Source: an uncultured Gaiellales bacterium
GTDB lineage: Bacteria; Actinomycetota; Thermoleophilia; Gaiellales; Gaiellaceae
DNA length: 52,044 nt
Assembly (NCBI GenBank): GCA_964569165.1
Contig: CAZMUG010000002.1
Span: forward strand, 1-52,044
Reading direction: 5' to 3'
Position numbers and translations under genes: made by a program. The notes below the pieces were generated by a model that did no database searches, had not been told where the DNA came from, and saw nothing but the letters and a program-made list of their open reading frames with translations. This document shows positions 15,126 to 51,890 of the stretch, in pieces (the first letter of the stretch is position 1; the number at the start of each line of letters is the position of its first letter).

Positions 15126-15890
15126 ATGGCGACACCTCGCTCACGGCATGCAGCGCGGCTGCGTGCGAGCCGGCGCCGGAAGCAGGCGCGCGCGCGCCGA
15201 CTGGCGGTGCTGCTCGTCGTCGCAGCGCTCGCGGTGGTCACGCTCTCCGTCACGGCGTTCGACGACGACGGCGGCACGTCGCCCGCGGCGTCGGGCCCGG
15301 CGCCCCTGCCCGTGACCTCCGCTCCGCCCGAACCGAACATTCTCGCGACGGTCGGCAACCTCCGCGTGCACTCCCCGGTCGCCCAGGGCGGAGTCACCGC
15401 CGTCGGCTTCCACGGGAGCGAGAGCGGGGCGCTGGTGCTCCAGCCCGTCGGCCCACAGGCGAACGAGGGCCTGCTCGCCCGGCTGTGGCGGCGCATCACG
15501 GGCTCGTCCCGGGCGGGCTATCGCTGGTACCAGCTCGCCCGCGGCCCTCTCCGCACGCTCGACGTCGGCGCGGTCGCCGGGACGGATGTCTACTCGCCGA
15601 TCGACGGCACCGTCGTCGCCGTTCGTGACCAGGTCATCTCGGGGCGAGTCATCGGCTCGGAGATCGAGCTCCGTCCCACCTCGGCTCCGTCGCTGGTCGT
15701 GTCGATCCAGAACGTCCGCCGGGACCCTGCGCTCACGGTCGGCGCCAATGTCGCGGCCGGCTCGTCCAAGCTCGGAACGGCGGCCGAGATCAGCCGCTGG
15801 GAGCGCCAGGCGCTCGCCGACTACGCCCCGGGCGGCGGGAACAACGTCTCGATTCGGGTCTTCCCGTCCGCGACGCTGGGCGTGCCGTAG
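15126..15890 (+). CDS. Membrane-anchored hypothetical protein with LytM/M23-like barrel segment
   Basis: A basic N-terminus and a TM segment (LAVLLVVAALAVVTL) are followed by a DVYSPIDGTVVAVRD segment resembling the M23/LytM hybrid motif. Catalytic His motifs are not evident. Confidence 0.6.
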   Translation: MATPRSRHAARLRASRRRKQARARRLAVLLVVAALAVVTLSVTAFDDDGGTSPAASGPAPLPVTSAPPEPNILATVGNLRVHSPVAQGGVTAVGFHGSESGALVLQPVGPQANEGLLARLWRRITGSSRAGYRWYQLARGPLRTLDVGAVAGTDVYSPIDGTVVAVRDQVISGRVIGSEIELRPTSAPSLVVSIQNVRRDPALTVGANVAAGSSKLGTAAEISRWERQALADYAPGGGNNVSIRVFPSATLGVP

Positions 15891-24124: not shown

Positions 24125-24715
24125 CTATCGAGCGCTCGTCGTACGCGGCGCGGCGTAGCCGCCGATCCCGTCCACGAGAATCGCGACGAAGCGGTCCGCG
24201 AGCTCGTCGGTGTCGGCGTCCTCGCGCAGCCACGTGTACGCCCAGTTCGCCGCCGAGAGCACGACGAGCGCCGCGTCCGACGCGCGCAGGTCCACCCGCA
24301 GCTCGCCCCGCTCGACACCCTCGCGGAAGAGAGCGCGCCACCGCTCCTCGTACCGGCGGCGCTCCGCGACGAACTCGTCGCGGTGCTCACCCTCCAGGTA
24401 GCGCCACTCCCGCGTGAACACCGTCGCCGCGGCAAGCTGCTCCGCGACGACGCGGAGGTGCCCGCGCAGCGCCTGCCTGATCCGCTCCACCGCGTGCAGG
24501 TCGTCGTCCACGGCGTCGAGCGCGGCGTGGAACGCGTCTGCCCCCGCCCGCACCGCGTCGTACAGGAGCTGCTGCTTCGACTCGGTGAGCGAGTAGAGCG
24601 AGGCCTTCTGGACGCCCATCGCGTCGGCGATCTCGCCCATCGACGTGCCGTGGTACCCGCGTTCCGCGAAGAGCCGGGCGGCCGTCCGGACGAGCTCCGC
24701 GCGGCGCTCCGTCAT
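24125..24715 (-). CDS. TetR family transcriptional regulator (PaaR-like by position)
   Basis: N-terminal HTH (AARLFAERGYHGTSMGEIADAMGVQKASLYSL). It is divergent from paaA with a 38-nt gap and heads the lipid kinase/2-oxoacid dehydrogenase gene string. Confidence 0.85.
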   Translation of the reverse strand: MTERRAELVRTAARLFAERGYHGTSMGEIADAMGVQKASLYSLTESKQQLLYDAVRAGADAFHAALDAVDDDLHAVERIRQALRGHLRVVAEQLAAATVFTREWRYLEGEHRDEFVAERRRYEERWRALFREGVERGELRVDLRASDAALVVLSAANWAYTWLREDADTDELADRFVAILVDGIGGYAAPRTTSAR

Positions 24716-24722
24716 ACTCTCG

Positions 24723-24752
24723 ATGCTAACGACCGGTAGCCAGGGGGGTCAA
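24723..24752 (-). promoter_or_regulatory. Candidate leaderless promoter of the TetR gene (TTGACC, 18 nt, TAGCAT, 7 nt, ATG) overlapping an imperfect palindrome GCTAACGACCGGTAGC
   Basis: The -35 is the complement of 24747-24752 and the -10 is the complement of 24723-24728. The start ATG is the complement of 24713-24715. The palindrome at 24725-24740 is a possible operator. Confidence 0.35.
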
Positions 24753-24753
24753 C

Positions 24754-25659
24754 GTGGCCGAAGACGCGCGGACGCAGGAGTTCATCGAGTACGTCCAGTC
24801 GGGTGGGCTCGTCGAAGCCACGGACTGGATGCCCGACGAGTATCGGGCGCGGCTGATCAAGTTCATCGAGATGCACGCCAACTCGGAGCTGATGGGCGTG
24901 CTCCCGGAGCGCGACTGGATCCTGCGTGCGCCCACGCTGCAGCGCAAGCTCGCGCTGACGGCGAAGATCCAGGACGAGGTCGGCCACGCGCAGCTCATCT
25001 ACCGCGTCGTCGAGGACCTCGGCAAGCCCCGCGAGGCGTGCCTCGACGACCTCATCTCGGGCAAGGCGAAGTTCCACAACGTGTTCCACTACCCCACGCG
25101 GTCCTGGGGCGACGTCGGCGTCATCGCCTGGCTCGTGGACGCGGCCGCGATCGTCTCGCAGAAGGCGCTGCTCAAGACCTCCTACGCTCCGTACGCGCGG
25201 ATCATGAAGCGCGTGTGCTGGGAGGAGTCGTTCCACATCCTCCACGGGCGCGACGTCGTGCTCGCGATGGTCAACGGGACGGACGGCCAGCGCGAGCTCG
25301 TGCAGGAGGCGCTCGACCGCTGGTGGGGGCCGCTCATGATGTTCCACGGCAACCCGATCCCGGCCGAGGAGGATCCCACGTACTTCTGGCGGATCAAGAG
25401 CCAGGCAAACGAGGACGCGCGCCAGGAGTTCCTCGACGGCTACGTGAACCAGATCCTCGAGCTCGGCCTCACGGTCCCCGACCCGAAGCTGCGGCGGAGC
25501 GAGTCGGGCACGTGGGAGTACACGGAACCGGACTGGGACGAGCTGAGGTCGGTCGTCACCGGCCACGGGCCCGCGTCCGCGGAGCGCATCGCGTTCCGCT
25601 CGCTGTCGCGCGCCGAGGTGGACTGGGTGTCGCGCGTCGTGCTCGCGGAGGCGGCATGA
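24754..25659 (+). CDS. paaA: 1,2-phenylacetyl-CoA epoxidase subunit A
   Basis: Di-iron ligand pattern (NSELMG, QDEVGHAQL, WEESFHILHG) and the overall PaaA-like sequence. Confidence 0.9.
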   Translation: MAEDARTQEFIEYVQSGGLVEATDWMPDEYRARLIKFIEMHANSELMGVLPERDWILRAPTLQRKLALTAKIQDEVGHAQLIYRVVEDLGKPREACLDDLISGKAKFHNVFHYPTRSWGDVGVIAWLVDAAAIVSQKALLKTSYAPYARIMKRVCWEESFHILHGRDVVLAMVNGTDGQRELVQEALDRWWGPLMMFHGNPIPAEEDPTYFWRIKSQANEDARQEFLDGYVNQILELGLTVPDPKLRRSESGTWEYTEPDWDELRSVVTGHGPASAERIAFRSLSRAEVDWVSRVVLAEAA

Positions 25660-25837
25660 GGGACGGGGTCCGGATCGCGCCCCGGCGGCTCGCTCGGACA
25701 CGCCTGGAGGCGGGACCCTGGTAGACGCACGCCCCCGAGACGAGAGCGCCGCGAGCGAGCCGAGCCCGCCGCCGAAGGCCGCGGGCGGCCAGGGCGCGAT
25801 CTTCGAGGTCTTCCGGCAGGAGCGGAAGGGCAAGCCG

Positions 25838-26077
25838 ATGGAGCACGCGGGCTCGATTCGCGCGCCGAGCGAGGAGGCGGCCGAGGTGTACGCGCGGGAG
25901 TTCTACGGCCGGCGCGACGAGTCGGCCGCTCTCTGGATCGTCGCGCGGTCGGCCGTTCGCCAGGTCGACGGCTTCCCGGAGGAGTTCGACCGGAGCTATC
26001 GCCGCGTGGACGGGTACTCGCTCAAGGTGCGCCTCCGCGAGGCGCGCGAGCGGGCCGGGGCAGGCGACGGTGTCTGA
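25838..26077 (+). CDS. paaB: 1,2-phenylacetyl-CoA epoxidase subunit B (coordinates from first ATG; true start probably upstream)
   Basis: The translation HAGSIRAPSEEAAEVYAREFYGRR...LWIVA matches PaaB. The conserved IFEVFRQERKGKP strand lies in-frame upstream of the ATG. Confidence 0.8.
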   Translation: MEHAGSIRAPSEEAAEVYAREFYGRRDESAALWIVARSAVRQVDGFPEEFDRSYRRVDGYSLKVRLREARERAGAGDGV

Positions 26078-26127
26078 CACCGCACCGCTTGTTCAAGCCG
26101 TTTGCGGTGCCCCGGTGTCAGACACCG
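26068..26127. repeat. Intergenic inverted repeat built from two copies of GGTGTC(W)GACACC (about 21 bp stem, 3-nt bulge, 15-nt loop)
   Basis: CGGTGTCTGACACCGCACCGC (26068-26088) pairs with GCGGTGCCCCGGTGTCAGACACCG (26104-26127). It overlaps the paaB stop codon and precedes the paaC ATG. Confidence 0.8.
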
Positions 26128-26143
26128 TGGACGGCGAGGCCGG

Positions 26144-26815
26144 ATGAGCGAGCGCACCGACCTCCTGCTGTCGATCGCCGACGACGAGCTCTTCCTGGGC
26201 TGGCGCGACTCGGAGTGGACGGGGATCGCGCCCTTCCTCGAGGAGGACGTCGCGTTCTCGTCGATCGCGCAGAACGAGATCGGCCACGCCCGCGCCCTGT
26301 ACGAGCTCGCCGCGGCGGAGCTCGGCACGACCGCGGACGAGCTCGCGTTCGACCGCAGGCCCGAGGAGTACCGCTGCTCGCCGCTCGTCCAGCTCCGCCG
26401 CCTCGAGTGGGCACGGACGATCGCGCGCCGCTGGCTCTACGAGACCGCGGACGAGATTCGGCTCGACGCGCTTAGGGCCTCCGACGACCACGAGATCGCG
26501 GGCGTCGCTGCGAAGATGGACCGCGAGGAGGCGTACCACCGGATGCACGCGGAGATGTGGATCGACCGCCTGCTCTCGGCCGCGGAAGGTCGCGAGAGAC
26601 TCGACGAGGCCGTCGACGAGCTCTGGCCCTACGCGCTCGGAATGCTCGATGACGAGCTCCGGCCGGAGCTGCGCCGACGCGTGGAGGAGCGGCTCGGTCG
26701 AGCGCTTCCGGACGTGGAGCCGGTGCCCCGGAGCGTCCACGAGGCCGAGCTGGCCGAGCTCTGGGAGGAGATGACCTCCGTCCGCCGCTCCGAGCCCCCC
26801 GGCACGCAGTGGTAG
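26144..26815 (+). CDS. paaC: 1,2-phenylacetyl-CoA epoxidase subunit C
   Basis: The translation LSIADDELFLGWRDSEWTGIAPFLEEDVAFSSIAQNEIGHARALY has the PaaC pattern. ATG 26144 is preferred over GTG 26102, which lies inside the palindrome. Confidence 0.85.
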   Translation: MSERTDLLLSIADDELFLGWRDSEWTGIAPFLEEDVAFSSIAQNEIGHARALYELAAAELGTTADELAFDRRPEEYRCSPLVQLRRLEWARTIARRWLYETADEIRLDALRASDDHEIAGVAAKMDREEAYHRMHAEMWIDRLLSAAEGRERLDEAVDELWPYALGMLDDELRPELRRRVEERLGRALPDVEPVPRSVHEAELAELWEEMTSVRRSEPPGTQW

Positions 26816-27306
26816 GCGCGACCGTGCTCTCCGAGCAGGCAGTGTGGGACGCGCTCGCCGGCGTCCCCGATCCCGAGATCCCGGACGTCTCGCTGGTCGA
26901 CCTCGGGGTCGTGAAGAGCGTGAGCGTCGACGGTCACGACGTGGTGGTGGAGTTCACGCCGACCTTCATGGGCTGCCCGGCGCTCGAGCGGATGCGGCTC
27001 GAGCTCGGACGGGCGATCGAGGAGATCGGGGGCAGGCCGGAGATCCGCGTGCTCATGGACGACTCGTGGTCCACCGACCGCATCACGCCAGCGGGCCGGG
27101 AGAAGCTCCGGCTCGCCGGCTTCGCACCGCCTGCCCCGCGCCCAGCCGGAAAGCTCGAGCTCGTGCAGCTGCAGCGCGGATTCCGCTGTCCGTACTGCGG
27201 CTCGACGGACACGCGGCTCGACAACATCTTCGGCCCGACTCCGTGCCGCTCGATCCGCTACTGCAACGGCTGCCGGCAGCCCTTCGAGCAGTTCAAGACG
27301 ATCTGA
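26809..27306 (+). CDS. paaD: Phenylacetate-CoA oxygenase subunit PaaD (PaaJ in some nomenclatures)
   Basis: It has a SUF/MIP18-like N-domain (VPDPEIPDVSLVDLGVV) and a C-terminal Cys cluster (CPYCGS...CNGC). Its start overlaps the paaC end. Confidence 0.85.
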   Translation: MVGATVLSEQAVWDALAGVPDPEIPDVSLVDLGVVKSVSVDGHDVVVEFTPTFMGCPALERMRLELGRAIEEIGGRPEIRVLMDDSWSTDRITPAGREKLRLAGFAPPAPRPAGKLELVQLQRGFRCPYCGSTDTRLDNIFGPTPCRSIRYCNGCRQPFEQFKTI

Positions 27307-27307
27307 C

Positions 27308-28933
27308 GTGGCGACCAGCGCGTACCTCCGGACCGCGAACCAGCCTCCGCCGCTCGAGGGCTACGACCTCTTCTCGGAGAACCGCCCGCTCGTGGAGGCG
27401 CTCACGCGCGAGGGCGCGGCCGAGCGCACGGACGAGTGCGCCGCGTTCGGACGGCTCTGCGGCGGCGAGCCCCTCGAGCTCGGACGGCTCGCGAACGAGC
27501 ATCCGCCCGCGCTCCGGGCCTTCGACCGCTTCGGCGAGCGGCTCGACGAGGTCGAGTTCCACCCCTCCTGGCACGAGCTCATGCGGATCGGGGTCGAGGG
27601 CGGCGCTCACGCCTTCCCGTGGGCCGATCGCGGGCCGGCACCGCACGCCGCCAGGGCCGCACGGTTCATGACGCTCTCGTACGCCGAGGCGGGCGTCGGG
27701 TGCCCGCTCTCGATGACGTACTCCGTCCTCCCGGCGCTCCGCGCCGACGGCGAGCTCCTCGCGGAGTGGGGAGACGGCCTCACGTCGCGCCGGTACGACC
27801 CTGGATCGCGCGGCCACACCGAGAAGGCGGGGCTGCTCGCCGGGATGGCGCTCACCGAGCGCCAGGGCGGCTCGGACGTGCGCGCGAACGAGGCGCGTGC
27901 CGAGCCGCTCGCCGACGGCAGCTATGCACTGACGGGGGAGAAGTGGTTCTGCTCGGCTCCGATGTGCGACGTCTTCCTCGTGCTCGCCTACGCGCCGGGC
28001 GGGCTGACGTGCTTCGTCATGCCGCGCATCCTCGAGGACGGGGCGCGCAACGGGCTCCACCTCCGGCGCCTCAAGGACAAGCTGGGCAACCGCTCGAACG
28101 CGTCGGCCGAGATCGAGCTGCGCGATGCGCGGGCGGCCCGGCTCGGACCGGAAGGACGCGGCGTTGCCACGATCATCGAGATGGTCGTGCACACGCGGCT
28201 CGACTGCGTCCTCGGCTCGACCGCGCTCATGCGGCGCGCGGTCGCGGAGGCGACGCACCACGCCGCCCACCGGTCCGCCTTCGGCCGGCTCCTGGCGGAG
28301 CAGCCGCTCCAGCAGAGCGTCCTCGCCGACCTCTGCCTCGACTCCGAGGCGGCCACGGCAACGGCGATGCGACTCGCGCGGGCGGTCGACGAGCGCGAGG
28401 ACGACTTCCGCCGCCTCGCGACGACGGTCGCCAAGTACTGGATCTGCAAGTCGACGCCGCCGCTCGTGGCCGAGGCGCTCGAGTGCATCGGGGGCAACGG
28501 ATACGTCGAGGAGTCGCCGCTCCCGCGCCTCTTCCGGGAGAGCCCCGTGAACTCGCTCTGGGAGGGCGCGGGCAACGTCAACGCGCTCGATCTCTGGCGG
28601 GCTGCCGATCGCGAGCCGGCCAGCATCGAGGCGCTCCTGGCCGAGATCGCCTGCGGCGGCGGAGCCGACGCGAGGCTGGACGCGGCGACCGCACGGCTCC
28701 GGGCCGAGCTCGCGGACGCAGGCGACCGCGAGCATCGAGCACGCCGTGTCGCCGAGCTCGCCGCCCTCTGCCTGCAGGCGTCCCTCCTCGTTCGCCATGC
28801 GCCCACCGGAGTCGCGGACGCGTTCTGCGCCACCCGGCTCGGGGGAGAGGGGAGCCGCGCGTACGGAACCCTCCCGCGCGGCATCGACGCGGCGGGGATC
28901 ATCGAACGGCACCGCCCGCAGATCGACGCCTGA
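27308..28933 (+). CDS. AidB-like acyl-CoA dehydrogenase
   Basis: 541 aa with GMALTERQGGSDVRAN, KWFCSAPMCDVFLVLA, LKDKLGNRSNASAEIEL and ECIGGNGYVEESPLPRLFRESPVNSLWEG. Confidence 0.85.
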   Translation: MATSAYLRTANQPPPLEGYDLFSENRPLVEALTREGAAERTDECAAFGRLCGGEPLELGRLANEHPPALRAFDRFGERLDEVEFHPSWHELMRIGVEGGAHAFPWADRGPAPHAARAARFMTLSYAEAGVGCPLSMTYSVLPALRADGELLAEWGDGLTSRRYDPGSRGHTEKAGLLAGMALTERQGGSDVRANEARAEPLADGSYALTGEKWFCSAPMCDVFLVLAYAPGGLTCFVMPRILEDGARNGLHLRRLKDKLGNRSNASAEIELRDARAARLGPEGRGVATIIEMVVHTRLDCVLGSTALMRRAVAEATHHAAHRSAFGRLLAEQPLQQSVLADLCLDSEAATATAMRLARAVDEREDDFRRLATTVAKYWICKSTPPLVAEALECIGGNGYVEESPLPRLFRESPVNSLWEGAGNVNALDLWRAADREPASIEALLAEIACGGGADARLDAATARLRAELADAGDREHRARRVAELAALCLQASLLVRHAPTGVADAFCATRLGGEGSRAYGTLPRGIDAAGIIERHRPQIDA

Positions 28934-28969
28934 CGGCGGCCGGGCACGCGAATCTACTCTTTGGCGCCC

Positions 28970-29428
28970 ATGCGGGGCATCGGGGTCTTCGTCACCGTCC
29001 TGCTCGTCGCGGGCGGGGTCGCCATGTTCCTCTACACGAGGCCGCCGGACCGGAGCCTCGACGACCCGGGGCGGGAGTGGGTGGACGAGTTCACGGCCTG
29101 GAGTCTCGACCTGGAGCGGACGATCGACCGGGCCGAGGTCTCGATCGGGGTGTCGAGCGGCGAGCGCTTCGACACGTCGCTCGTGCCGGCTCTCGAGGCG
29201 TGCGCGCCCACGCTCCGCCGGCTCGGGCCGCCGTCCAACCCCCTCCTCGGCCGGGCCGTGGAGGAGGCGAGCATCGCGTGCAGCGAGATCGAGCATGCGC
29301 TCGCCGTCTACGAGCGCTACGGACCCCCGGCTCTCGCTTCGACGGAGCAGCACCTCAAGCGCGCGGCGAGATGGCTCGTCGCTGCCCGGTTCACGATCAA
29401 GCGACGTCTCAGCGGCAAGGACTACTGA
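28970..29428 (+). CDS. Hypothetical membrane-anchored protein
   Basis: The translation MRGIGVFVTVLLVAGGVAMFLY gives an N-terminal anchor followed by a helical soluble part. No family was recognised. Confidence 0.5.
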   Translation: MRGIGVFVTVLLVAGGVAMFLYTRPPDRSLDDPGREWVDEFTAWSLDLERTIDRAEVSIGVSSGERFDTSLVPALEACAPTLRRLGPPSNPLLGRAVEEASIACSEIEHALAVYERYGPPALASTEQHLKRAARWLVAARFTIKRRLSGKDY

Positions 29429-29458
29429 GCGCGGCCCCCAGCGGCATCCGGCCGGGCA

Positions 29459-29704
29459 TCAGACGGATCGCCACGACCCCGGTCTGATCCTGTACGCGTG
29501 GCCGTCCGGTGACGCCTCGCGGAGCACACGATCGACCTCCTCCGCGGACGGGCGGCTGCTTGCGACGAGGCGAACGGTCGCGAGGTCGGCGCTCTCGTCG
29601 ACCGCGATCTCGAGAACCGTGCCGAGGTCCCCGAGCGCGTCTCTGACGAGCGCCGCGCAGCTCTCGCAGCCGGCCTGCTCGATGTCGAAGACGGTCGCTT
29701 CCAC
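29459..29704 (-). CDS. Heavy-metal-associated (HMA)-like small protein with GCESC motif
   Basis: 81 aa: VEATVFDIEQAGCESCAALVRDALGDLGTVLEIAVDESADLATVRLV... has a ferredoxin-like HMA pattern. GTG is the complement of 29702-29704. The longer ORF-track entry is read-through. Confidence 0.55.
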   Translation of the reverse strand: MEATVFDIEQAGCESCAALVRDALGDLGTVLEIAVDESADLATVRLVASSRPSAEEVDRVLREASPDGHAYRIRPGSWRSV

Positions 29705-29728
29705 GAGCCGCAGAGTACCGCCGCTAGG

Positions 29729-29965
29729 GTGGACGTCGTGCACGTCGAGATCCTCTACTGCCCCACCTGAAGCGGCTACGACGCACGGGCCACGAGTCTC
29801 GCGGCCGAGCTCTCCTCGACGACGGACGCCACGACGACGGTCACGCCGGGCGGCCGGGGGCAGTTCGACGTCGTCGCGGACGGCAGGCTGATCTGGTCGA
29901 AGCAGGTGGTGGGTCGCTTCCCCGAGGACGGTGAGATCGTGCGGCTTCTGGACGCGGCGGGTTAG
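29729..29965 (+). CDS. SelW-like (Rdx family) thioredoxin-fold protein, candidate selenoprotein with in-frame TGA (codon 14)
   Basis: The translation is VDVVHVEILYCPT[TGA 29768-29770]SGYDARATSLAAELS...GGRGQFDVVADGRLIWSKQVVGRFPEDGEIVRLLDAAG. The CxxU position and the G.G.F.V..DG.LIWSK..GRFP pattern are family-typical. Neither half is a viable gene alone. Confidence 0.65.
29786..29807 (+). promoter_or_regulatory. Candidate SECIS-like stem-loop downstream of the in-frame UGA
   Basis: GGCC-A-CGA/GUC/UCG-C-GGCC (29788-29806) has 7 base pairs, one mismatch and an apical GUC loop about 28 nt 3' of the UGA. It was folded by eye only. Confidence 0.3.
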
Positions 29966-30939
29966 CGCAGCAGGAAGCCGTCCCCGACGGGATCGTCCGG
30001 GTCGAGCGTGAACACGTGCTCGCCGGTCCGGTAGGCGCTTCCCTCGACCTCGGTGACGACGGCCGGTATCCCCGCGACCTCGGCTTCCCCGACGACGCGA
30101 CCGGTGAACTCGGAGCCGACGATGCTCAGGTGCCGGAGCTCCTCGCCGCGCGGGAGCCGGCCCGAGCGATCGAGAAGGGCAAGGCGCGCCGACGTCCCGC
30201 TGCCGCACGGCGAGCGGTCGACCTCGCCGTCGGCGAAGACCGTGACGTTCCGCTGGGCGAGCGGGCGCTCACCCTCTTCCTGCCAGAAGATCACGCCGTA
30301 GACGTCCCGGAGCTCCGGCTCGAGGGGATGAACGACGTCGTGCCCGGCCTCGAGCTCTCGCTTGACCTCGCGTCCGAGCTCGATCAGGCGCGGCAGCTCG
30401 GCCGGCTCGACTCGCTCCTCGACCGACGCGTAGAACGCCCCGCCGAACGCGACGTCCGCGGCGCCGCAGCCGAGCTCGACCCGCTCTCCCCAGACGAACG
30501 AGGGCACGTTCCGGAACCGCACCGAGCGCACGCGCCCGTCGCGCACGAGGGCCCACGTCTCCAGCCGCCCGGACGGCACGTCCACGACCACGTGGTTCTC
30601 CCCCTCCACGCGCTCGACAACTCCTTCGTCCAGCGCCCACGTCACGAGCGCGATGGTGCCGTGGCCGCATGCCGTCGAGTAGCCCGCGTTGTGGAAGAAG
30701 ACGACGCCCAGGTCGGCACCGTCGTCGTTGGGCTCGACCACGTGGCAGCCGTACATGTCTGCGTGGCCGCGCGGCTCGAAGACGAGCAGGCGCCGGACGT
30801 GGTCGAGGCGCTCCAGTGCGTCGCGCCGCTTGTCGAGGATCGTCGCGCCGCGGAGCGGCTCGGTGCCCCCGGTCACGATGCGGAACGGCTCCCCGCCCGT
30901 GTGGTAGTCGACAGTGCGGACCTCGGTGTCAGACACCAT
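29962..30939 (-). CDS. Proline racemase family enzyme (Cys/Cys catalytic pair: racemase or 4-hydroxyproline 2-epimerase type)
   Basis: Motifs DYHTGGEPFRIV, NAGYSTACGHGTIAL and DRSPCGSGTSA. Both catalytic Cys are present, which argues against the Thr-containing dehydratase subtype. Confidence 0.85.
   Translation of the reverse strand: MVSDTEVRTVDYHTGGEPFRIVTGGTEPLRGATILDKRRDALERLDHVRRLLVFEPRGHADMYGCHVVEPNDDGADLGVVFFHNAGYSTACGHGTIALVTWALDEGVVERVEGENHVVVDVPSGRLETWALVRDGRVRSVRFRNVPSFVWGERVELGCGAADVAFGGAFYASVEERVEPAELPRLIELGREVKRELEAGHDVVHPLEPELRDVYGVIFWQEEGERPLAQRNVTVFADGEVDRSPCGSGTSARLALLDRSGRLPRGEELRHLSIVGSEFTGRVVGEAEVAGIPAVVTEVEGSAYRTGEHVFTLDPDDPVGDGFLLR
30925..30937. repeat. Copy of 13-bp palindrome GGTGTCAGACACC
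   Basis: Exact match to the arm at 26114-26126. It encodes codons 2-5 (VSDT) of the proline-racemase-family gene and abuts its ATG. Confidence 0.8.
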
Positions 30940-31070
30940 CGCCTGTCAAGTGGAACGCGTGAAAAGACTGCGCCATTAGCTCCACACACGAGCGTAGTCG
31001 CAGAGCAGCTGCCGGCGACCGGACATGTCTGACGCGCACAGAGGCCGGGCCACAGGGTTGGATGGCGCGA

Positions 31071-31089
31071 GACACGAGTGTCTGACACC
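31071..31089. repeat. GACAC-GA-GTGTC-T-GACACC: overlapping palindromes containing a 12/13 copy of GGTGTC(W)GACACC
   Basis: Read directly from the sequence. It lies in the 292-nt intergenic region between the PaaG-like gene and the proline-racemase-family gene. Confidence 0.75.
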
Positions 31090-31231
31090 GGGCTCGCGGC
31101 CCGCAGCGAGGATGAGGCCCCAGGGATCCGTCGTCAGGCGTGGACCCCCGAGGCCCCGGGAGTCGAGTACCGCTCCCCGAACGGGCGAAGCGGTGGGTAG
31201 AGGGCCGGTTTCGCCGGCTCCGCGCTGTCTC

Positions 31232-32008
31232 CTACCTGCCCTCGAACCTCGCGACGCGCTTCTCGAGGAACGCCTGCACGCCCTCGCGGAAGTCCTCGGT
31301 CCCGGATGCCGCCTGCTGCAGCTCGGCCTCGAGCGCGAGCTGCTCCTCGAGCGAGGCCGTGTACGCGTGCTCGAAGAGCCGCTTCGTCATCGAGACCGCC
31401 CGCGTCGGAAGCGCCGCATACCACTCGGCGAGCTCCGCCGTCCGCTTCGCGAAGCGCTCCGCCGGGATTTCCTCCGAGACGAGCCCCCAGATCAGCGCCT
31501 CGTCGGCGCTCAGGCGGCGGTTGGACACCATCCACTCGAACGCACGGGAGAACCCGAGCAGGCGATGGAGGAACCACGTGCTCCCCGCGTCGGGCACCAG
31601 CCCGATCCCGACGAACCCCGGGACGAAGCTCGCCTCGGACGACGCGATGCGCACGTCGCAGGCACAGGCGAGCGAGAGCCCGGCACCCGCACAGGGGCCG
31701 TTGATCGCCCCGAGCACCGGCTTCTCGAGAGCCCGGATCCGCCGCACGTTCGGGTGGTACGTCTCCTCGAGCGCCTGCCCGACGCCGCCGGGGAGCTCGG
31801 AGAACTCGCGCAAGTCCTGGCCCGCGCAGAAGCCGCGACCTGCGCCGGTGAGCACGACCGCGCGGATCTCCGGCACGGCCGCCTCGTCGAGGGCGGCTGC
31901 GAGCCCTTCGTGCATCGCGCGGTTGATGGCGTTGTAGACGTCGGGGCGGTTGAGCGTGATCGTGAGGACCGCGCCCGACCGCGACGTGACGACCGCGGCC
32001 TCGCTCAT
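31232..32008 (-). CDS. Enoyl-CoA hydratase/isomerase (PaaG-like)
   Basis: 258 aa with LTITLNRPDVYNA, GAGRGFCAGQDL, INGPCAGAGLSLACACD and EGVQAFLEKR. Confidence 0.8.
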   Translation of the reverse strand: MSEAAVVTSRSGAVLTITLNRPDVYNAINRAMHEGLAAALDEAAVPEIRAVVLTGAGRGFCAGQDLREFSELPGGVGQALEETYHPNVRRIRALEKPVLGAINGPCAGAGLSLACACDVRIASSEASFVPGFVGIGLVPDAGSTWFLHRLLGFSRAFEWMVSNRRLSADEALIWGLVSEEIPAERFAKRTAELAEWYAALPTRAVSMTKRLFEHAYTASLEEQLALEAELQQAASGTEDFREGVQAFLEKRVARFEGR

Positions 32009-32017
32009 CGCCCCAGC

Positions 32018-32836
32018 CTACTCGCCCTTGCCCCGCTCGAGGAACGCGCGCACGGCGGACTGCGCCTCCTCGCCGAGCATCGACATCGCAAGCCAGTCGC
32101 GAGCGTGCCCCACGGTCTGGTGCCATGCGAGGTCGCGCCAGACGTTGAGCTGCTGCTTCGCGTACCTGGTCGTCTCGGGGAGGCGCGCCGCGAGCTTCTC
32201 CACCCACTCGTCCACGACCGCGTCGAGCTCGTCCTCGGGCACCGCGCGATTCACGAGGCCCCACTCCGCCGCCTGCCCTGCGGGAATCTCGTCGCAGAGG
32301 AACACGATCTCACGTGCGCGGCGGTCCCCGACCATGAGCTGAAGCCACTGCGTCGCGCCCCCGGCGGGCACCGACCCGTGCTGCAGGCCCACGTGCCTGA
32401 TGAAGGCGGTCTCGACCATGACGGAGAGGTCGCACGCCATCTGCAGCTCGTTGCCGCCGCCGACCGCGATCCCGTTGACCCGCGCGATCGTCGGCTTGCC
32501 GAGCTCCCGGATCCGGTCGTGCATGTCCTTGAACGCGCCGAACCACTTCCAGTACTCCCTCGAGCTCCCGAGGAGGTCCTCGCCCCAGGAGCGGAGGTCC
32601 GCTCCGACGCAGAACGCGCGGCCCGTTCCCGTGACGACGAGGACGCGAACGTCGTCGTCCCAGGAGGCGTCCTCGCAGGCGCGGGCGATCTCCCGGAGCA
32701 TCCGGAAGTCGAACGCATTCAGCACGTCCGGTCGGTTCAGGCGGATCGTCGCCCGCGGCGGCGCTTTCTCGTAGACGACCGACTCGAGCCCGAGCTCGGC
32801 CGGGTCGCGAGGGCGGGGGTGCACGGGCTCGCTCAT
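32018..32836 (-). CDS. Crotonase superfamily enzyme (MenB/BadI-like branch)
   Basis: Motifs TIRLNRPDVLNAF, GTGRAFCVGADL, VNGIAVGGGNELQMACD and GSVPAGGATQWL. ATG is the complement of 32834-32836 and overlaps the EthD stop (ATGA). Confidence 0.8.
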   Translation of the reverse strand: MSEPVHPRPRDPAELGLESVVYEKAPPRATIRLNRPDVLNAFDFRMLREIARACEDASWDDDVRVLVVTGTGRAFCVGADLRSWGEDLLGSSREYWKWFGAFKDMHDRIRELGKPTIARVNGIAVGGGNELQMACDLSVMVETAFIRHVGLQHGSVPAGGATQWLQLMVGDRRAREIVFLCDEIPAGQAAEWGLVNRAVPEDELDAVVDEWVEKLAARLPETTRYAKQQLNVWRDLAWHQTVGHARDWLAMSMLGEEAQSAVRAFLERGKGE

Positions 32837-33114
32837 TCCACGGCGACGAAGTGGACGGTGAAGGGAATCCCCATCGCCATCGCATCCTTGCCCGAGGCGC
32901 CGAATGCCTCCGACTGGACGGCCGCGCGGAACGACTCCTCGTCGGCCCACTCGAACTCGGCGTAGTACCGGTAGGTGGGCTCGCCGAGCGGCGACCCGAG
33001 GACCTTCCCGTGCCGGAACGCGGCACACTCGACGGGCGGGACGAACTCCTCGACGTGCCGGCGATAGCGCTCCGGGTCGGGCTCGGACTCGTACTGGACG
33101 ATTGCACGGATCAC
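32833..33114 (-). CDS. EthD-family (dimeric alpha/beta-barrel) protein
   Basis: 93 aa: VIRAIVQYESEPDPERYRRHVEEFV...YYAEFEWADEESFRAAVQSEAF... It is preceded by GAGGAGAG 5 nt upstream of the GTG. Confidence 0.7.
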   Translation of the reverse strand: MIRAIVQYESEPDPERYRRHVEEFVPPVECAAFRHGKVLGSPLGEPTYRYYAEFEWADEESFRAAVQSEAFGASGKDAMAMGIPFTVHFVAVE

Positions 33115-37147: not shown

Positions 37148-39361
37148 TCAGAGCTCCACGATGTCGTCCGGCCGCACGGGGACGCGGGGGAGCTCGAGGC
37201 CGGTGGCGTGCCGGAGCGCCGCGGCCACGGCCGCGGTCGAGACGACGGCCGGCGGCTCCCCGACCCCCTTGACGCCGTACGGCGCGTCCGGCTCGGGCTC
37301 CTCCACGAGCTCGGAGACGACGGGCGGCATGTCGAGGAACGTCGGGACGAGGTAGTCGGTGAAGCTCGCGTTCGTGATCACGCCGTCGCGAACCTGCAGC
37401 TCCTCCATCAGCGCGAGCCCGATGCCCTGAGCGGTCCCGCCCTCGATCTGCCCCTCGACGGCAGGGTGGTTCAGCACCCTGCCGACGTCCTGGGCCGTGC
37501 CGACCCAGACGACCCGGGTGAGGCCGAGCTCCACGTCCACCTCGACCACCACCCGCATCGCCGCAACCGCGAGCGCGACGTGGGCCGGGCCGTCCACGAC
37601 CTGGCCGGTCACGGGATCGAGAGGGTACGTGCGCGGGTGCCGGTAGACGCGCTCGACATCCACGGGCCCGCCCGTGCGCTCCCGCTCCTCGCGCGCCGCG
37701 CGGCACGCCTCTCGCACGGCGCCGGCCGCCATCCACGTCATCCGGGACGCCGAGCACGACCCCGACGAGCCGACGCGCGCCGTCGAGCCGGAGGCCAGGG
37801 TCACGTCCTCCGTCCCGAGCTCGAGGCGGGCGACGCTCAGCATCACGTCGGTGACGCCCTGGCCGACCTCCGCCGCGGCACAGTGGATCTCCGCCGTGCC
37901 GTCGTCGGCGAGCACGACCCGCGCGGTGCAGTAGTCGTCGAACCCCTCCGAGTAGCAGATGTTCTTGAACCCGACGGCGAAGCCGACGCCGCGACGGACG
38001 CCCTCGCCGCGCGTCGTGTTCCCGGCGCCGCCCGGGAGCCGGATCGGATCGCGGGGGAGCTCTTCGGGCTCGGGTACCGGGATCGCGGCGGCGCGCCTTA
38101 TCACCTCGCGGGTGGGAAGCGAGCCCGTCACCACCTGGCCCGTGGCGAGCCTGCCGCCCGGCTCGAGCGCGTTCAGGAGACGGAGCTCGACGGGATCGAT
38201 CCCGAGGCGCACGGCGAGACGGTCCATCTGCGCCTCGGCCGCGAAGCAGGTCTGTACGGCGCCGAAGCCCCTCATGGCGCCGCACGGCGGGTTGTTGGTG
38301 TAGACCGCGAGCCCCTCGACCAGCACGTTCTCGACCGCGTAGGGGCCGACGGCGAAGGAGCACGCGTTCGAGATCACCGCGGTCGAGCTCGACGCGTACG
38401 CGCCCCCGTCGACGAGGACCCGCATGCGCACCGCGAGCAGCCGGCCGTCGTGGGTGGCGCGGTGCTCCGCCCAGATCCGCGCCGGGTGCCGGTGCACGTG
38501 CCCGACGAACGACTCCTCCCGGGAGTACACCATCTTCACGGGCCGGCCCGTATGCAGCGCGAGCAGGGCGGCGTGGATCTGCATCGAGAGGTCCTCCCGG
38601 CCGCCGAAGGCGCCGCCCACGCCCGCGAGGTGGATACGCACTCGCTCCACATCGAGGCCGAGGCAGGGAGCGACCTGGTCGCGGTCCACGTGCAGCCACT
38701 GGGTCGCGACATGGATGTCCACGCCCCCCGCTCCGTCCGGGACGGCGAGGCCGGACTCGGGGCCGAGGAAGGCCTGGTCCTGGGCGCGGGTCTCGTACAG
38801 GCCCTCGACCGAGACGTCTCCCTCGACCTCGGGGTCGCCGCGGCGGATCACGATCGACCGCACGACGTTCGGCCTCGGATCGTCGCGGTACCCGTGGCCC
38901 AGGGTCGGGCGGTCGGGGTGGAGGGGCTCCTGCTCCGTCGCCGTCTCCGGATCGTCCACGGGCGGCAGCGGCTCGTACTCGACGCGCACGGCCGCGGCGG
39001 CGCGCCTCGCTTGCTCCGGCTCCTCGGCCGCGACGATCGCCACCGGCTCGCCGAAGTAGCGGACGCGGTCGATCGCGAGGACGGGCTGGTCGGGGAACTC
39101 GAGCCCGTACGTCTTCCTGCCGGGCACGTCCGCGTGGGTGAGGACGGCGTGCACGCCCGGGAGCGCGAGCGCCTCCGAGACGTCGATCTCGACGATGCGC
39201 GCGTGCGGGTGCGGGCTGCGCACGGTCCTGCCCCAGAGCATTCCCGCGGCGTGGAGATCGCTCGAGTACGCGAACTCGCCCGTGACCTTCGAGACCGCGT
39301 CGGACCGGCGAGCCGCCGGCGTCGCGCGACCACGGCGTGGCGTCGACGTGACCGTGGTCAT
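37148..39361 (-). CDS. Xanthine dehydrogenase family molybdopterin-binding (large) subunit
   Basis: 737 aa with GEFAYSSD, GGAFGGRE, MRGFG, AAAEVGQGV and YGVKGVGEPP motifs. Its ATG overlaps the FeS-subunit stop (ATGA). Confidence 0.85.
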   Translation of the reverse strand: MTTVTSTPRRGRATPAARRSDAVSKVTGEFAYSSDLHAAGMLWGRTVRSPHPHARIVEIDVSEALALPGVHAVLTHADVPGRKTYGLEFPDQPVLAIDRVRYFGEPVAIVAAEEPEQARRAAAAVRVEYEPLPPVDDPETATEQEPLHPDRPTLGHGYRDDPRPNVVRSIVIRRGDPEVEGDVSVEGLYETRAQDQAFLGPESGLAVPDGAGGVDIHVATQWLHVDRDQVAPCLGLDVERVRIHLAGVGGAFGGREDLSMQIHAALLALHTGRPVKMVYSREESFVGHVHRHPARIWAEHRATHDGRLLAVRMRVLVDGGAYASSSTAVISNACSFAVGPYAVENVLVEGLAVYTNNPPCGAMRGFGAVQTCFAAEAQMDRLAVRLGIDPVELRLLNALEPGGRLATGQVVTGSLPTREVIRRAAAIPVPEPEELPRDPIRLPGGAGNTTRGEGVRRGVGFAVGFKNICYSEGFDDYCTARVVLADDGTAEIHCAAAEVGQGVTDVMLSVARLELGTEDVTLASGSTARVGSSGSCSASRMTWMAAGAVREACRAAREERERTGGPVDVERVYRHPRTYPLDPVTGQVVDGPAHVALAVAAMRVVVEVDVELGLTRVVWVGTAQDVGRVLNHPAVEGQIEGGTAQGIGLALMEELQVRDGVITNASFTDYLVPTFLDMPPVVSELVEEPEPDAPYGVKGVGEPPAVVSTAAVAAALRHATGLELPRVPVRPDDIVEL

Positions 39362-39813
39362 CGCTCTGCGGCCAGCCTGACCGCGTCGAGGATCTTCTGG
39401 TACCCGGTGCAGCGGCACAGGTTTCCCGACAGCGCCTCGCGGATCTCGTCGTCGCTCGGATCGGGGACGCGGCGGAGCAGGTCGGCCGCCGCGACGACGA
39501 AGCCCGGGGTGCAGAAACCGCACTGCACCGCGCCCGCGTCGGCAAACGCCTCCTGCACCGGGTGGAGCGCGCCGTCGGCGCCGAGCCCCTCGACCGTGAC
39601 GACCTCGTGCCCGTCCGCCTGGGCCGAGAGGACGAGGCACGAGCAGACGAGCTCGCCGTCGAGGAGGACGGAGCAGGAGCCGCACTCGCCCTGCTCGCAG
39701 GCGTTCTTCGAGCCCGGGAGCTCGAGCCGGTCGCGGAGCGTCGTGAGCAGGCTCTCGCCGGCCCACACGTCGGCCTCCAGGCGCTCCCCGTTCACCGTGA
39801 GCTCGATCCTCAC
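39358..39813 (-). CDS. Xanthine dehydrogenase family (2Fe-2S)-binding small subunit
   Basis: Motifs CEQGECGSCSV, CGFCTPG and CRCTGY. The GTG overlaps the FAD-subunit stop (GTGA). Confidence 0.9.
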   Translation of the reverse strand: MRIELTVNGERLEADVWAGESLLTTLRDRLELPGSKNACEQGECGSCSVLLDGELVCSCLVLSAQADGHEVVTVEGLGADGALHPVQEAFADAGAVQCGFCTPGFVVAAADLLRRVPDPSDDEIREALSGNLCRCTGYQKILDAVRLAAER

Positions 39814-40598
39814 GCCAGGCACCTCTCGACAGCGCGCGTCGCGAGGACCCGGAGCGCGTGGCGCCGGTACGCAGCCGTCCCGCGGACGTCGTCGATCGGG
39901 CTCGCTGCGGATGCGACCAGCTCCGGGATGCGGTCCGCGTCCGCCAGCGGCGCCTGCACCAGCCTCGCGACGGGTGCCGCGGAGCCGAACGCTGCGCGCA
40001 CCTCCCCGCGCTCGCGATCGACGACGAGCGCGAGCGAGCAGACGGCGATGACCATCGCGTTCCTCGGGCCGACCTTCATGAAGGTCTGCGACTGTCCCGT
40101 CCGCGGCACGTACACCGAGACGATGAGCTCGTCCTGCGCCAGCGCGTTTCGCTTCACCCCGACGAGGAACTCCTCGAGGAGCAGCCGGCGCTCTCCCCGG
40201 ACACTCGCGAGCTGGACCTCGGCCCCCTCCACGAGAAGCGGGGGGAGCGCGTCGCCGGCGGGAGACGCCGTACCGAGATTGCCGCCGATCGTGCCGCGGT
40301 TGCGGATCTGCGGGGAGCCGACCGTGCGCGACGCCTCCGCGAGAGCGGGGTGCGCATCCGCGAGCTCGCGGACGACCTCCGCGTACGTGAGACCGGCGCC
40401 GAGCCGCGTGACGCCGTTCTCCCGCTCCCAGCCCCGGAGCTCCGTGACCTCGTTCAGGTTCAGCAGGGCCTCCGGCCTCGCCCGGTCGAAGTTCATGGAG
40501 ACCATGACGTCGGTGCCGCCCTGGACCGGGAGCGCGCCCGGATGCCGCGCCTTCAGCGCGAGCGCCTCGTCCAGCGTGCGCGGGGTGAGGACGTCCAC
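39810..40598 (-). CDS. Xanthine dehydrogenase family FAD-binding (medium) subunit
   Basis: Motifs QGGTDVMV, IRNRGTIGGNL and DDVRGTAAYRRH. Confidence 0.85.
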   Translation of the reverse strand: MDVLTPRTLDEALALKARHPGALPVQGGTDVMVSMNFDRARPEALLNLNEVTELRGWERENGVTRLGAGLTYAEVVRELADAHPALAEASRTVGSPQIRNRGTIGGNLGTASPAGDALPPLLVEGAEVQLASVRGERRLLLEEFLVGVKRNALAQDELIVSVYVPRTGQSQTFMKVGPRNAMVIAVCSLALVVDRERGEVRAAFGSAAPVARLVQAPLADADRIPELVASAASPIDDVRGTAAYRRHALRVLATRAVERCLA

Positions 40599-40601
40599 GG
40601 G

Positions 40602-41591
40602 CTAGCGCTCCTCTCTCACGTACGGGATCCCGAGAGCCGCGGGCGCCCCGAGCCGGCGCTTCGCGGCGCCGGACGAGACGGCGACGAGGACCACGACCGT
40701 CATCACGTACGGCAGCGCGATGAAGACCTCCGCCGGGACCTCGGTCAGCCAGCCGCGCGCCTGGAGGAGGAGGGGGAGCGCCGAGAACGCCCCGAAGAGA
40801 TAGGCGCCGACGAGACAGAGGTCGGCCCGCCAGAAGGCGAAGATGACGAGCGCGACCGCGATCCAGCCCGCACCCCCCGTCAGGCCGTTCACCCACTGCG
40901 GGGTGATCTGCAGGCTGAAGCACGCGCCCCCGACGCCCGCGAACGCGCCGCCCACCACGGTGTGCGCGTAGCGGTAGCGCGTCACGTCGATCCCCATCGC
41001 GTCAGCAGCGGCAGGGGACTCCCCCACGGCTCGGACGTTCAGCCCGAGCCTCGTGCGGGCCAGGTAGAGGCCGACGGCGAGAACGCATCCCCAGGAGAGA
41101 TACACGAGCGCGGACTGGTCGAACAGGATGGGGCCGAGAACCGGAAGGTCGCCGAGCCCGAGGACGTCGAGCGGAGCGAACACGTGCTCGGCGGGAGCGC
41201 CGCTCAGGTCGAGGTCGTTCCCGAGGTAGGACGAGAGGCCGGCCGCGCCGGCGAAGATCGTCAGCGCGAGGCCGGAGACGATCTGGTTCGCCCGCAGCGT
41301 GATCACGAGGAACGCGTGGATGAGCCCCATCGCGGCGCCGGCCACGGCCGCGACGGCCACGGCCGCCGTGAGCGAGACGCCACCCGCAGCGTCGAGCGTC
41401 TGGACCGCCCAGAAGCCCATCACGGCCCCCACGAGCATCATCCCCTCGACGCCGAGGTTCAGCACGCCCGAGCGCTCCGCCAGCACCTCGCCGAGCGCGG
41501 CGAAGAGGAGCGGCGTCCCGTACAGCACCGCGGAGGCGAGGATGAGGACGAGAAAGCTGTCGTTCACCCCTGCCGCCACGAGACCGGTCAC
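40602..41591 (-). CDS. ABC transporter permease (BMP/nucleoside-type, second permease)
   Basis: Multi-TM protein with ERSGVLNLGVEGMMLVGA. The GTG at complement 41589-41591 overlaps the upstream stop (GTGA). Confidence 0.85.
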   Translation of the reverse strand: MTGLVAAGVNDSFLVLILASAVLYGTPLLFAALGEVLAERSGVLNLGVEGMMLVGAVMGFWAVQTLDAAGGVSLTAAVAVAAVAGAAMGLIHAFLVITLRANQIVSGLALTIFAGAAGLSSYLGNDLDLSGAPAEHVFAPLDVLGLGDLPVLGPILFDQSALVYLSWGCVLAVGLYLARTRLGLNVRAVGESPAAADAMGIDVTRYRYAHTVVGGAFAGVGGACFSLQITPQWVNGLTGGAGWIAVALVIFAFWRADLCLVGAYLFGAFSALPLLLQARGWLTEVPAEVFIALPYVMTVVVLVAVSSGAAKRRLGAPAALGIPYVREER

Positions 41592-42718
41592 CGGCCGGCC
41601 TCCGCGGGAGTGCTTCCGGCCGCGGCGACCGGCGCGCGCCCGAAGCGCACGCGGTAGCGGATGAGCACCTCGCCGCCGAGGGCGCAGAAGAGGATGAGCC
41701 CCTGCATCACCCCCACGAGCCCGGACGGGAAGTCGGCGCCCTGCAGCGTGTACCCCGCGTTCTGGAGCCCGCCGAGGAGGAAGCCGACCGGCACGACGGC
41801 AAGCGGGCTGTACGCGGCGAGGGCCGCCACGACGATCCCCGTGTAGCCGAAGAACGACGACTGGAGCCCGGTCGGGTCGATCTGGTACGCGAAGTCGCCC
41901 TCGTAGCTCGCCCCTCCGAGCCCGGCGATCGCGCCGGAGATGCACATCACCGCGAGGATCTTCCTCCGGAGCCGCATGCCGGCGAACCGCGCGGTCCTCG
42001 GCGAGTCGCCGATCACCTGCAGCTCGAACCCGAAGCGCGTGCGGGCGTACAGGACCCAGAGCACCACCGCCGTGAGGATGGCGATCCCGAAGCCGAGTGG
42101 CACGAGCAGGCTGCCGAGCTCCCAGCTCGGCCACTTCGCCTCCTCGGGGATGCTCTTGCCCAGCGGGAAGGTCTGACCCTCGAAGCTCTCGAGATCACGC
42201 CAGTACGACTTCGAGTCGATGATCAGGTACGTCAGGACGAGCCCGGCGACGTAGTTGAGCATCAGCGAGGTGATGATCTCGTTCGTCTTGAAGAAGGCGC
42301 GGAGGAAGCCGGGGATCGCCGCCCAGGCCGCGCCCGCGAGCATCCCGGCGACGACCATCGCCGGGATGAAGACCCACGTCTCGGTCACTCCCCGGTCGCC
42401 GAGGTAGAGCGCGATGCCCACGCCCGCGATCGCGCCGAAGTAGAACTGCCCCTCGCCGCCGATGTTGTACAGCTGCATGCGGAACGCCGCCGCCGCGGCG
42501 AGCCCCGTGAACACGATCGGCGTGCAGAAGACGAGCGTCGACGTGAGCGCACCGTTCGCGAAGAACGCCGCGTCGAAGAGGCGCCGGTACGTCGTGAGCG
42601 GGTCGTGGCCGGTCGCGAGCAGCACGATCGCCATGAGGCCGAAGGCGACCACGATCGATCCTGCCGGGACGGCGACCGACAGCCAGCGCGGCTGGTCGAG
42701 CCGCCGCTCGAGCCTCAT
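41588..42718 (-). CDS. ABC transporter permease (BMP/nucleoside-type, first permease)
   Basis: 376 aa, multi-TM, with LYNIGGEGQFYFGAIAG. Its ATG overlaps the ATPase stop (ATGA). Confidence 0.85.
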   Translation of the reverse strand: MRLERRLDQPRWLSVAVPAGSIVVAFGLMAIVLLATGHDPLTTYRRLFDAAFFANGALTSTLVFCTPIVFTGLAAAAAFRMQLYNIGGEGQFYFGAIAGVGIALYLGDRGVTETWVFIPAMVVAGMLAGAAWAAIPGFLRAFFKTNEIITSLMLNYVAGLVLTYLIIDSKSYWRDLESFEGQTFPLGKSIPEEAKWPSWELGSLLVPLGFGIAILTAVVLWVLYARTRFGFELQVIGDSPRTARFAGMRLRRKILAVMCISGAIAGLGGASYEGDFAYQIDPTGLQSSFFGYTGIVVAALAAYSPLAVVPVGFLLGGLQNAGYTLQGADFPSGLVGVMQGLILFCALGGEVLIRYRVRFGRAPVAAAGSTPAEAGR

Positions 42719-44301: not shown

Positions 44302-44305
44302 CCGC

Positions 44306-45415: not shown

Positions 45416-45493
45416 CGGATCCTCCGATCTCCTGGACGTGACCTGCCGGGGCGACTATAGGACAGCGCACCGGGCCGTATTAGGCTTGCCGCA

Positions 45494-48516: not shown

Positions 48517-48562
48517 GACGCCCCGGTGCCGCCCGCGCGAGGTCGAGGTTCGCGAGGACGGC

Positions 48563-50420: not shown

Positions 50421-50430
50421 GGTCGCGCGC

Positions 50431-51841: not shown

Positions 51842-51890
51842 GGGCTGAATCTAGAGGTCGCGGAGCGGCGGAGCCCGACGTGCGACCGCG

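Follow-up and report, generated by a model that had tools for sequence, protein, structure and literature searches.

The 52,044-nucleotide stretch of DNA analysed here (positions 1 to 52,044, forward strand, of contig CAZMUG010000002.1 from an uncultured Gaiellales bacterium; hereafter the window) carries on its plus strand a small gene of the SelW-like (Rdx) family, interrupted by a TGA codon which, in our view, is in all likelihood read as selenocysteine (Sec). Read from GTG 29729, the frame yields VDVVHVEILYCPT, meets the TGA at 29768-29770, resumes with SGYDARATSLAAELSSTTDATTTVTPGGRGQFDVVADGRLIWSKQVVGRFPEDGEIVRLLDAAG and closes at TAG 29963-29965. This is exactly the split frame that a first-pass annotation of the locus had described. 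Sixty-four codons separate the two stop triplets and, as that annotation also claimed, the first in-frame ATG, GTG or TTG downstream from the TGA is GTG 29906. The list of open reading frames (ORFs) is empty for the SelW-like frame because no start codon occurs before this point. The accompanying remark about the six-frame track, namely that it fails to show the locus, is accurate in the sense that no start-bearing ORF spans it, and in that sense only.

Both parts of the frame bear the coding signature of this genome. The window has a G+C content of 71.6%, and G or C occupies the third codon position (GC3) in 13/13 codons of the 5′ piece and at a frequency of 0.91 in the 3′ piece. When all 52 kilobases (kb) were scanned for TGA codons flanked on either side by sequence of coding composition, the triplet at 29768 was the only one returned, apart from one trivial case in which two adjacent genes share a frame. 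TGA is also the commonest ordinary stop in the window, ending 22 of the 35 confident ORFs; therefore, the codon is not reassigned genome-wide, and a genetic-code change was rejected as an explanation for the locus. An interpretation as two separate mini-ORFs was likewise rejected.

When the TGA is translated as Cys for the purpose of profile searches, the product matches the Pfam family Rdx (PF10262) with E=3e-15, residues 5-75 aligning with profile positions 1-73 of 74, across the TGA. Taken by itself, the 3′ piece matches with E=5e-11. The NCBIfam model TIGR02174 (CXXU_selWTH, covering SelT/SelW/SelH) scores 45.2 bits against a cutoff of 34.2. The protein reads ...VEILYCPT-TGA-SGYD...GQFDVVADG...GRFPEDGE and keeps all family-invariant residues (G38, G41, F43, D44, V45, S54, K55, R60, F61, P62 and E66). 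Its nearest relatives of solved structure, by sequence, are the CxxC-type Rdx proteins 2OKA, 2OBK, 2OJL, 3DEX, 2FA8 and 2P0G (E=5e-5 to 1e-3), all products of structural genomics, and the TGA aligns with the second Cys of their CxxC motif, which is CTQC in 2OKA and 2OBK. The redox motif of the window gene, TGC CCC ACC TGA at 29759-29770, thus reads Cys-Pro-Thr-Sec if the UGA is decoded as proposed. These matches bear out the earlier suggestion of an Rdx/SelW pattern with the TGA at the second redox position.

Structural comparison leads to the same assignment. The fold was modelled with AlphaFold on a homologue 70% identical to the window protein (P0001). The model has a pLDDT of 96.8 and the element order beta-alpha-beta-beta-beta-alpha, with the redox motif lying between strand 1 and helix 1. 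Its TM-score is 0.86-0.88 to the SelW-related crystal structures 2FA8, 2OJL, 2OKA and 2OBK, and 0.74 to mouse SelW (2NPB). Every SelW-like/Rdx family trait that could be examined here is present in the window gene.

A scan of one genome per species yielded 68 related loci, 67 of which cover the site of the TGA. The homologous codon is TGA in all 67; none has a Cys codon. The closest loci (56-72% identity) belong to metagenome-assembled genomes (MAGs) of Gaiellaceae, Thermoleophilia and Actinomycetota. The remainder come from Vicinamibacterales and other Acidobacteriota, Desulfobulbia, Binataceae, Polyangiaceae, Planctomycetota and Eiseniibacteriota. In the homologous loci, coding sequence is kept on both sides of the TGA in an unbroken frame, with conservation of GQFDVVADG, FSK and GRFPE 3′ of it. 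The locus is thus represented in related genomes by conserved coding DNA, as opposed to unconserved noncoding sequence.

Protein database entries for these homologues are of two kinds: 3′ fragments that start after the TGA (P0004-P0009 and P0012) and full-length proteins with Trp at the Sec position (P0001-P0003, P0010 and P0011). Two of the Trp-containing entries, P0003 and P0010, were traced to their DNA (L073:1947-2168 and L074:184-402, respectively). The codon is TGA in both, and these entries have therefore been translated with the wrong genetic code. The Joint Genome Institute (JGI) labels homologous fragments "predicted Rdx family selenoprotein".

Comparison of orthologues also bears on the start codon. 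All of the 15 close orthologues have an ATG or GTG at the counterpart of 29738 or no more than one codon away from it; in the window this position is a GTG two codons before the VEI strand. In four orthologues an in-frame stop lies just upstream, and this excludes a longer N-terminus. Translation most likely starts, judging from these alignments, at GTG 29738 and not, as initially proposed, at GTG 29729, 9 nucleotides (nt) upstream, which would add three codons. Together with the Pfam and TIGR02174 matches, these orthologue starts define a coding sequence at 29738-29965 of 75 codons, with Sec as codon 11.

In 14 of 16 loci the homologous start is preceded, at a distance of 6-9 nt, by a hexamer of the form TANNNT (background chance, about 0.2% per locus), set in upstream sequence that is otherwise not conserved among the orthologous loci compared (the window and L001-L015). 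In the window the hexamer is TAGGGT, at 29725-29730 on the plus strand, 7 nt upstream of GTG 29738, and it too points to this codon as the start. A scan of 29300-30200 for promoter and terminator consensus sequences found nothing; the hexamer emerged from the orthologue comparison. Actinobacterial promoters have the -10 box TANNNT, and leaderless mRNAs are frequent in these bacteria. The position of TAGGGT, taken with this general knowledge of actinobacterial promoters, suggests that it serves as a -10 box and that the transcript is leaderless, starting around 29738. Such a start would explain the very short gap between the SelW-like gene and the divergent gene upstream (see below).

The stem-loop with an apical GUC at 29788-29806, put forward in the first-pass annotation as a bacterial selenocysteine insertion sequence (SECIS), conforms to the published model and shows covariation. 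It is composed of GGCC-A-CGA / GUC / UCG-C-GGCC, with a stem (29788-29795 with 29799-29806) of seven pairs and one A.C mismatch (29792/29802) and an apical loop, GUC, at 29796-29798. A 2026 review (PMC13188914, Fig. 2) gives for bacterial SECIS elements a loop of 3-9 nt, an upper stem of 4-16 base-pairs (bp), a G in the first two loop positions that is usually followed by G or U, a UGA-to-loop spacing of 16-37 nt and an energy of at most -7.5 kcal/mol. The window hairpin has a loop of 3 nt, or of 5 nt (A-G-U-C-U) if the A-U pair opens, and its stem of seven pairs plus one mismatch is within the stated range. The first loop nucleotide is G 29796, followed by U 29797. The spacing amounts to 25 nt (29771-29795), the loop G being the 28th nucleotide after the U of the UGA, and to 22 nt in homologues shorter by one codon. 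The hairpin alone folds at -10.9 kcal/mol.

Covariation was assessed by aligning 56 distinct homologous sequences, all of which share the loop G, the loop U being at least 90% conserved. Standard pairs fill 92.6% of the cells, versus 34-51% in controls with the partner shifted 1-3 columns. Double changes are found in five of the eight pairs and account for 53 cells, versus 13.7 in shuffles (0/500), and the same helix is obtained independently with RNAalifold. Several compensations are synonymous, Ala GCG/GCC changing together with Leu CUC/CUG (that is, GCG..CUC to GCC..CUG). Since such changes leave the encoded Ala-Ala-Ser-Leu-Ala-Ala helix as it is, the comparison points to selection on the hairpin RNA, and not solely on the protein.

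Two relatives carry further TGA-interrupted genes of families that are known to include selenoproteins (PMC13188914). One, in a Thermoleophilia MAG that shares with the window the gene order AidB-HMA-SelW-ProRac (L003:8854-9636, minus strand; TGA at 9034-9036), encodes an ArsM-family methyltransferase (NF008823, E=1.6e-62, below the curated cutoff). There the TGA takes the place of the Cys conserved in the motif WxG-C-IAGAL. Starting 9 nt after the TGA is a 7-bp hairpin, whose loop, UGGAC, lies 16 nt downstream. The gene is likely a second selenoprotein gene of that genome. The other, in a Gaiellaceae MAG (L011:14903-15361, minus strand; TGA at 15227-15229), encodes a peroxiredoxin of the AhpC/TSA type, again likely a selenoprotein. 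It has the TGA at the position of the peroxidatic Cys, a match to PF00578 across the TGA (E=9.5e-27) and, 3′ of the TGA, a perfect 9-bp hairpin, read by eye, formed by GAGCUCCUG/CAGGAGCUC with the loop CGUGA. Taken together, these two TGA-containing genes lead us to think, by an indirect route, that the lineage very probably decodes Sec.

The gene divergent from the SelW-like gene, on the minus strand at 29459-29704, encodes an HMA-domain protein with the motif GCESC (PF00403, E=3e-7, above the cutoff). The CxxC HMA-like neighbour of the first-pass annotation is therefore real, and its start lies, as was said, 24 nt from 29729. On the other side, the SelW-like gene converges with a proline-racemase-family gene (29962-30939, minus strand), whose best NCBIfam match, below the cutoff, is trans-3-hydroxy-L-proline dehydratase. 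The TAG of the SelW-like gene at 29963-29965 overlaps the TAA of this gene (29962-29964, minus strand). The conserved downstream neighbours, all on the opposite strand, are the proline-racemase-family gene and two enoyl-CoA hydratase genes. Being convergent, they are not co-transcribed with the SelW-like gene, which looks monocistronic.

Could the SelW-like and HMA genes form a dedicated redox/metal-handling pair, as was initially suggested? They lie head to head, 24-33 nt apart, and the arrangement recurs in L003, where the ArsM-like, likely selenoprotein gene adjoins the HMA homologue, divergent from the SelW-like gene. Yet this is the only one of the 15 close orthologous loci, and of the 68 loci in all, with an HMA gene in that place. 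The upstream neighbours in other loci vary and include aldehyde dehydrogenase, PaaC/PaaD and flavin adenine dinucleotide (FAD) oxidoreductase genes, among others. What is conserved instead is the tail-to-tail proline-racemase-family neighbour, found in about 11 Gaiellaceae-type loci and not co-transcribed. A dedicated pair is thus unlikely. It is a long shot, too, that within a Thermoleophilia subset comprising the window and L003 the SelW-like selenoprotein acts as redox partner of a metal- or metalloid-handling module. If it did, the orphan SelW-like family would gain its first physiological context in bacteria, namely a thiol/selenol relay serving metal transfer or the methylation of arsenic or selenium.

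The wider surroundings of the gene (24125-33028) form a phenylacetate/acyl-CoA catabolic neighbourhood, which includes a TetR regulator, PaaA/PaaC-type subunits (24730-25659 and 26078-26815), an AidB-like acyl-CoA dehydrogenase (27308-28933), a 155-residue ORF with no family match (28961-29428) and the two enoyl-CoA hydratases (31232-32008 and 32018-33028). Farther away, at 37148-51850, lies a purine-catabolism cluster: molybdopterin and FAD subunits of the xanthine-dehydrogenase type, adenine deaminase, HIUase/transthyretin, a Bmp-family ABC transporter (binding protein, ATPase and two permeases), a protein with a urate-oxidase N-terminal domain, DUF3830 and an M20 peptidase. In none of these genes was an in-frame TGA seen. 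The segment 3945-12708 is a menaquinone (futalosine-type) and respiratory cluster. It comprises a VitK2_biosynth-domain (MqnA/MqnD-like) protein, a CofH/MqnC-like radical SAM enzyme, a UbiX-like flavoprotein, UbiD and a cytochrome b split into two ORFs, at 9427-10227 (N-terminal part) and 8606-9490 (C-terminal part).

We put at about 0.88 the probability that the locus at 29738-29965 is a genuine Sec-decoded SelW-like gene. The profile matches across the TGA, the presence of TGA in 67/67 loci and the covarying hairpin all agree with the claim first made for the locus, that of an Rdx/SelW-like selenoprotein with a Sec-UGA at the second CxxU position and a SECIS element just downstream.

A number of observations weigh against this reading. 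Searches for the Sec machinery found no selA, selB, selD or tRNA-Sec in the 52-kb window or within 10 kb of the homologous loci: ARAGORN detected no tRNA of any kind in the window and no tRNA-Sec in 60 homologous loci; tblastn with the E. coli SelA, SelB and SelD sequences gave no match in the window or in any homologous locus; and Pfam scans of about 40 window ORFs returned no Sec-machinery family. The hairpin is supported by comparison, not by thermodynamics. Its pair probability in context is about 0.37, and the 66-nt region 29765-29830 folds no better than shuffles (z=+1.4). A Thr codon, ACG, replaces Ala GCG at 29792 and creates the A.C mismatch, making the stem 5.4 kcal/mol weaker than the Gaiellaceae consensus. 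Rfam searches, of the window at gathering thresholds and of 29600-30100 at E values up to 10, identified no SECIS or other relevant family. Pairwise ratios of nonsynonymous to synonymous substitution rates (dN/dS, Nei-Gojobori method, NG86) range from 0.24 to 1.1 and by themselves do not demonstrate purifying selection, these estimates being unreliable because a GC3 above 0.9 compresses dS. Finally, no prokaryotic SelW-like protein has been experimentally shown to contain selenium (PMC13188914).

Some of these points would fit a relic gene, that is, an ancestral Sec user in a genome that has since lost the machinery, where translation of a now decaying gene stops at the TGA, after 10 residues. 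The Sec machinery is not seen in the window, the stem mismatch is absent from the closest Gaiellaceae relatives, and dN/dS is near 1 with some relatives. Against decay, the frame stays intact for 64 codons past the TGA with a GC3 of 0.91, each of the family-invariant residues is retained, and the loop G-U and the promoter-like TANNNT are intact. As for the mismatch, the same position is unpaired in 12 of the 56 aligned homologues (A.C in six, U.C in six), which look functional, so that it is evidently tolerated in the family. We give the relic interpretation a slim chance.

Highly improbable is a selenium-free read-through of the UGA, in which a near-cognate Trp or Cys tRNA, or a suppressor tRNA, would yield a product with CxxW or CxxC, the hairpin doing no more than slowing termination. 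Sec insertion at this UGA is a prediction, and some public gene calls do place a W at the codon. Those calls, however, are artefacts of translation table 4 applied to TGA-containing DNA, and TGA is the main stop codon in the window. Moreover, the codon falls on the catalytic second redox position, where members of the family function with Cys or Sec only, and the hairpin bears the G-U loop signature of SelB-binding SECIS elements. A nonsense-mutated pseudogene of an ordinary CxxC Rdx protein, for which a single-base change from TGC to TGA would suffice (TGT being the other possible ancestor) and which might derive from proteins common in bacteria, as the PDB matches illustrate, is effectively refuted by the comparative data, independent nonsense mutations being unable to generate a TGA in 67/67 homologues from several phyla, with no Cys codon in any, next to a covarying 3′ hairpin.

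If the SelW-like gene is indeed decoded with Sec, the mechanism we infer, modelled on the established scheme of Sec insertion in E. coli (PMC1794560, PMC13188914), would run as follows. The mRNA would begin, probably without a leader, at or beside GTG 29738. When a ribosome arrives at UGA 29768, the hairpin at 29788-29806 would be in position, its conserved loop G-U exposed 25 nt downstream. The loop would recruit SelB together with GTP and Sec-tRNA(Sec), and Sec would be inserted at residue 11 instead of termination. The predicted product is a 75-residue protein of thioredoxin fold, with Cys-Pro-Thr-Sec where strand 1 ends and helix 1 starts. By analogy with its family, it may act as a small thiol-dependent oxidoreductase in which Cys8 and Sec11 cycle between the selenol/thiol form and a selenenylsulfide.

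The gene is an ordinary member of the SelW-like family that automatic gene finders have missed. Its value is mostly practical, as a clean case of a genuine gene truncated or mistranslated by standard ORF finders and by many public protein sets. What is known of selenoproteins remains unchanged, the family, the CxxU motif and the SECIS element having been described since 2005. The only mildly new point is the host clade. The gene indicates that Gaiellaceae-type soil actinobacteria use selenocysteine, a statement not found in the searchable literature, where Gaiella or Thermoleophilia and selenocysteine or selenoproteins appear together in incidental co-mentions only, with no paper linking them. 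Less far-reaching than the redox-partner idea, but likewise improbable, is the possibility that Gaiellaceae, which are abundant aerobic soil actinobacteria, keep the whole Sec machinery chiefly for small redox selenoproteins of this sort.

A 2005 study described SelW-like proteins as bacterial selenoproteins; with 48 genes and the CXXU motif, they outnumbered every other selenoprotein family in the Sargasso Sea data (PMC1088965). The scarcity of Cys homologues was noted in 2006 (PMC1794560), and the 2026 review lists the family as "predicted with high confidence" (PMC13188914). The window gene resembles these bacterial selenoproteins (PF10262, TIGR02174; PMC1088965, PMC1794560) in its length of about 75 residues, its CxxU motif after strand 1, its thioredoxin-like fold, the UGA-encoded Sec, the small hairpin directly 3′ with a G in the apical loop and the small number, or absence, of orthologues in Cys form. 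It differs from those described in its Gaiellaceae-like host, the CPTU version of the motif, the A.C mismatch in the hairpin and the probably leaderless transcript. The solved Cys-form Rdx proteins, namely 2FA8 (Agrobacterium Atu0228), 2OKA and 2OBK (Pseudomonas), 2OJL (Bordetella), 2P0G (Vibrio) and 3DEX (Streptomyces SAV_2001), share the fold, with TM-scores of 0.78-0.88 to the P0001 model. Unlike the window protein, they have a CxxC motif, are about 25 residues longer and need no recoding.

Mouse SelW (2NPB, solved by nuclear magnetic resonance) and MIEN1 (2LJK) carry their CxxU or CxxC motif at the same structural position, within the same beta-alpha-beta-beta-beta-alpha core (TM-score of the P0001 model, 0.74-0.78). 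Mammalian SelW differs in that its SECIS element lies in the 3′ untranslated region and has another structure, and its partners (glutathione, 14-3-3) are eukaryotic. The closest parallel for the hairpin itself is the reference bacterial SECIS element, that of E. coli fdhF, which likewise lies inside the coding sequence just 3′ of the UGA and exposes G-U in a small apical loop. The loop is GGUC in fdhF and GUC, or AGUCU, in the window, with flanking stem pairs of the ...CAG/CUG... kind. The distance from the U of the UGA to the loop is about 22 nt in fdhF and 28 nt in the window. The window hairpin lacks the bulged U of its E. coli counterpart, and its stem is richer in G+C, folding at -10.9 kcal/mol versus -4.2 kcal/mol for the minimal fdhF element.

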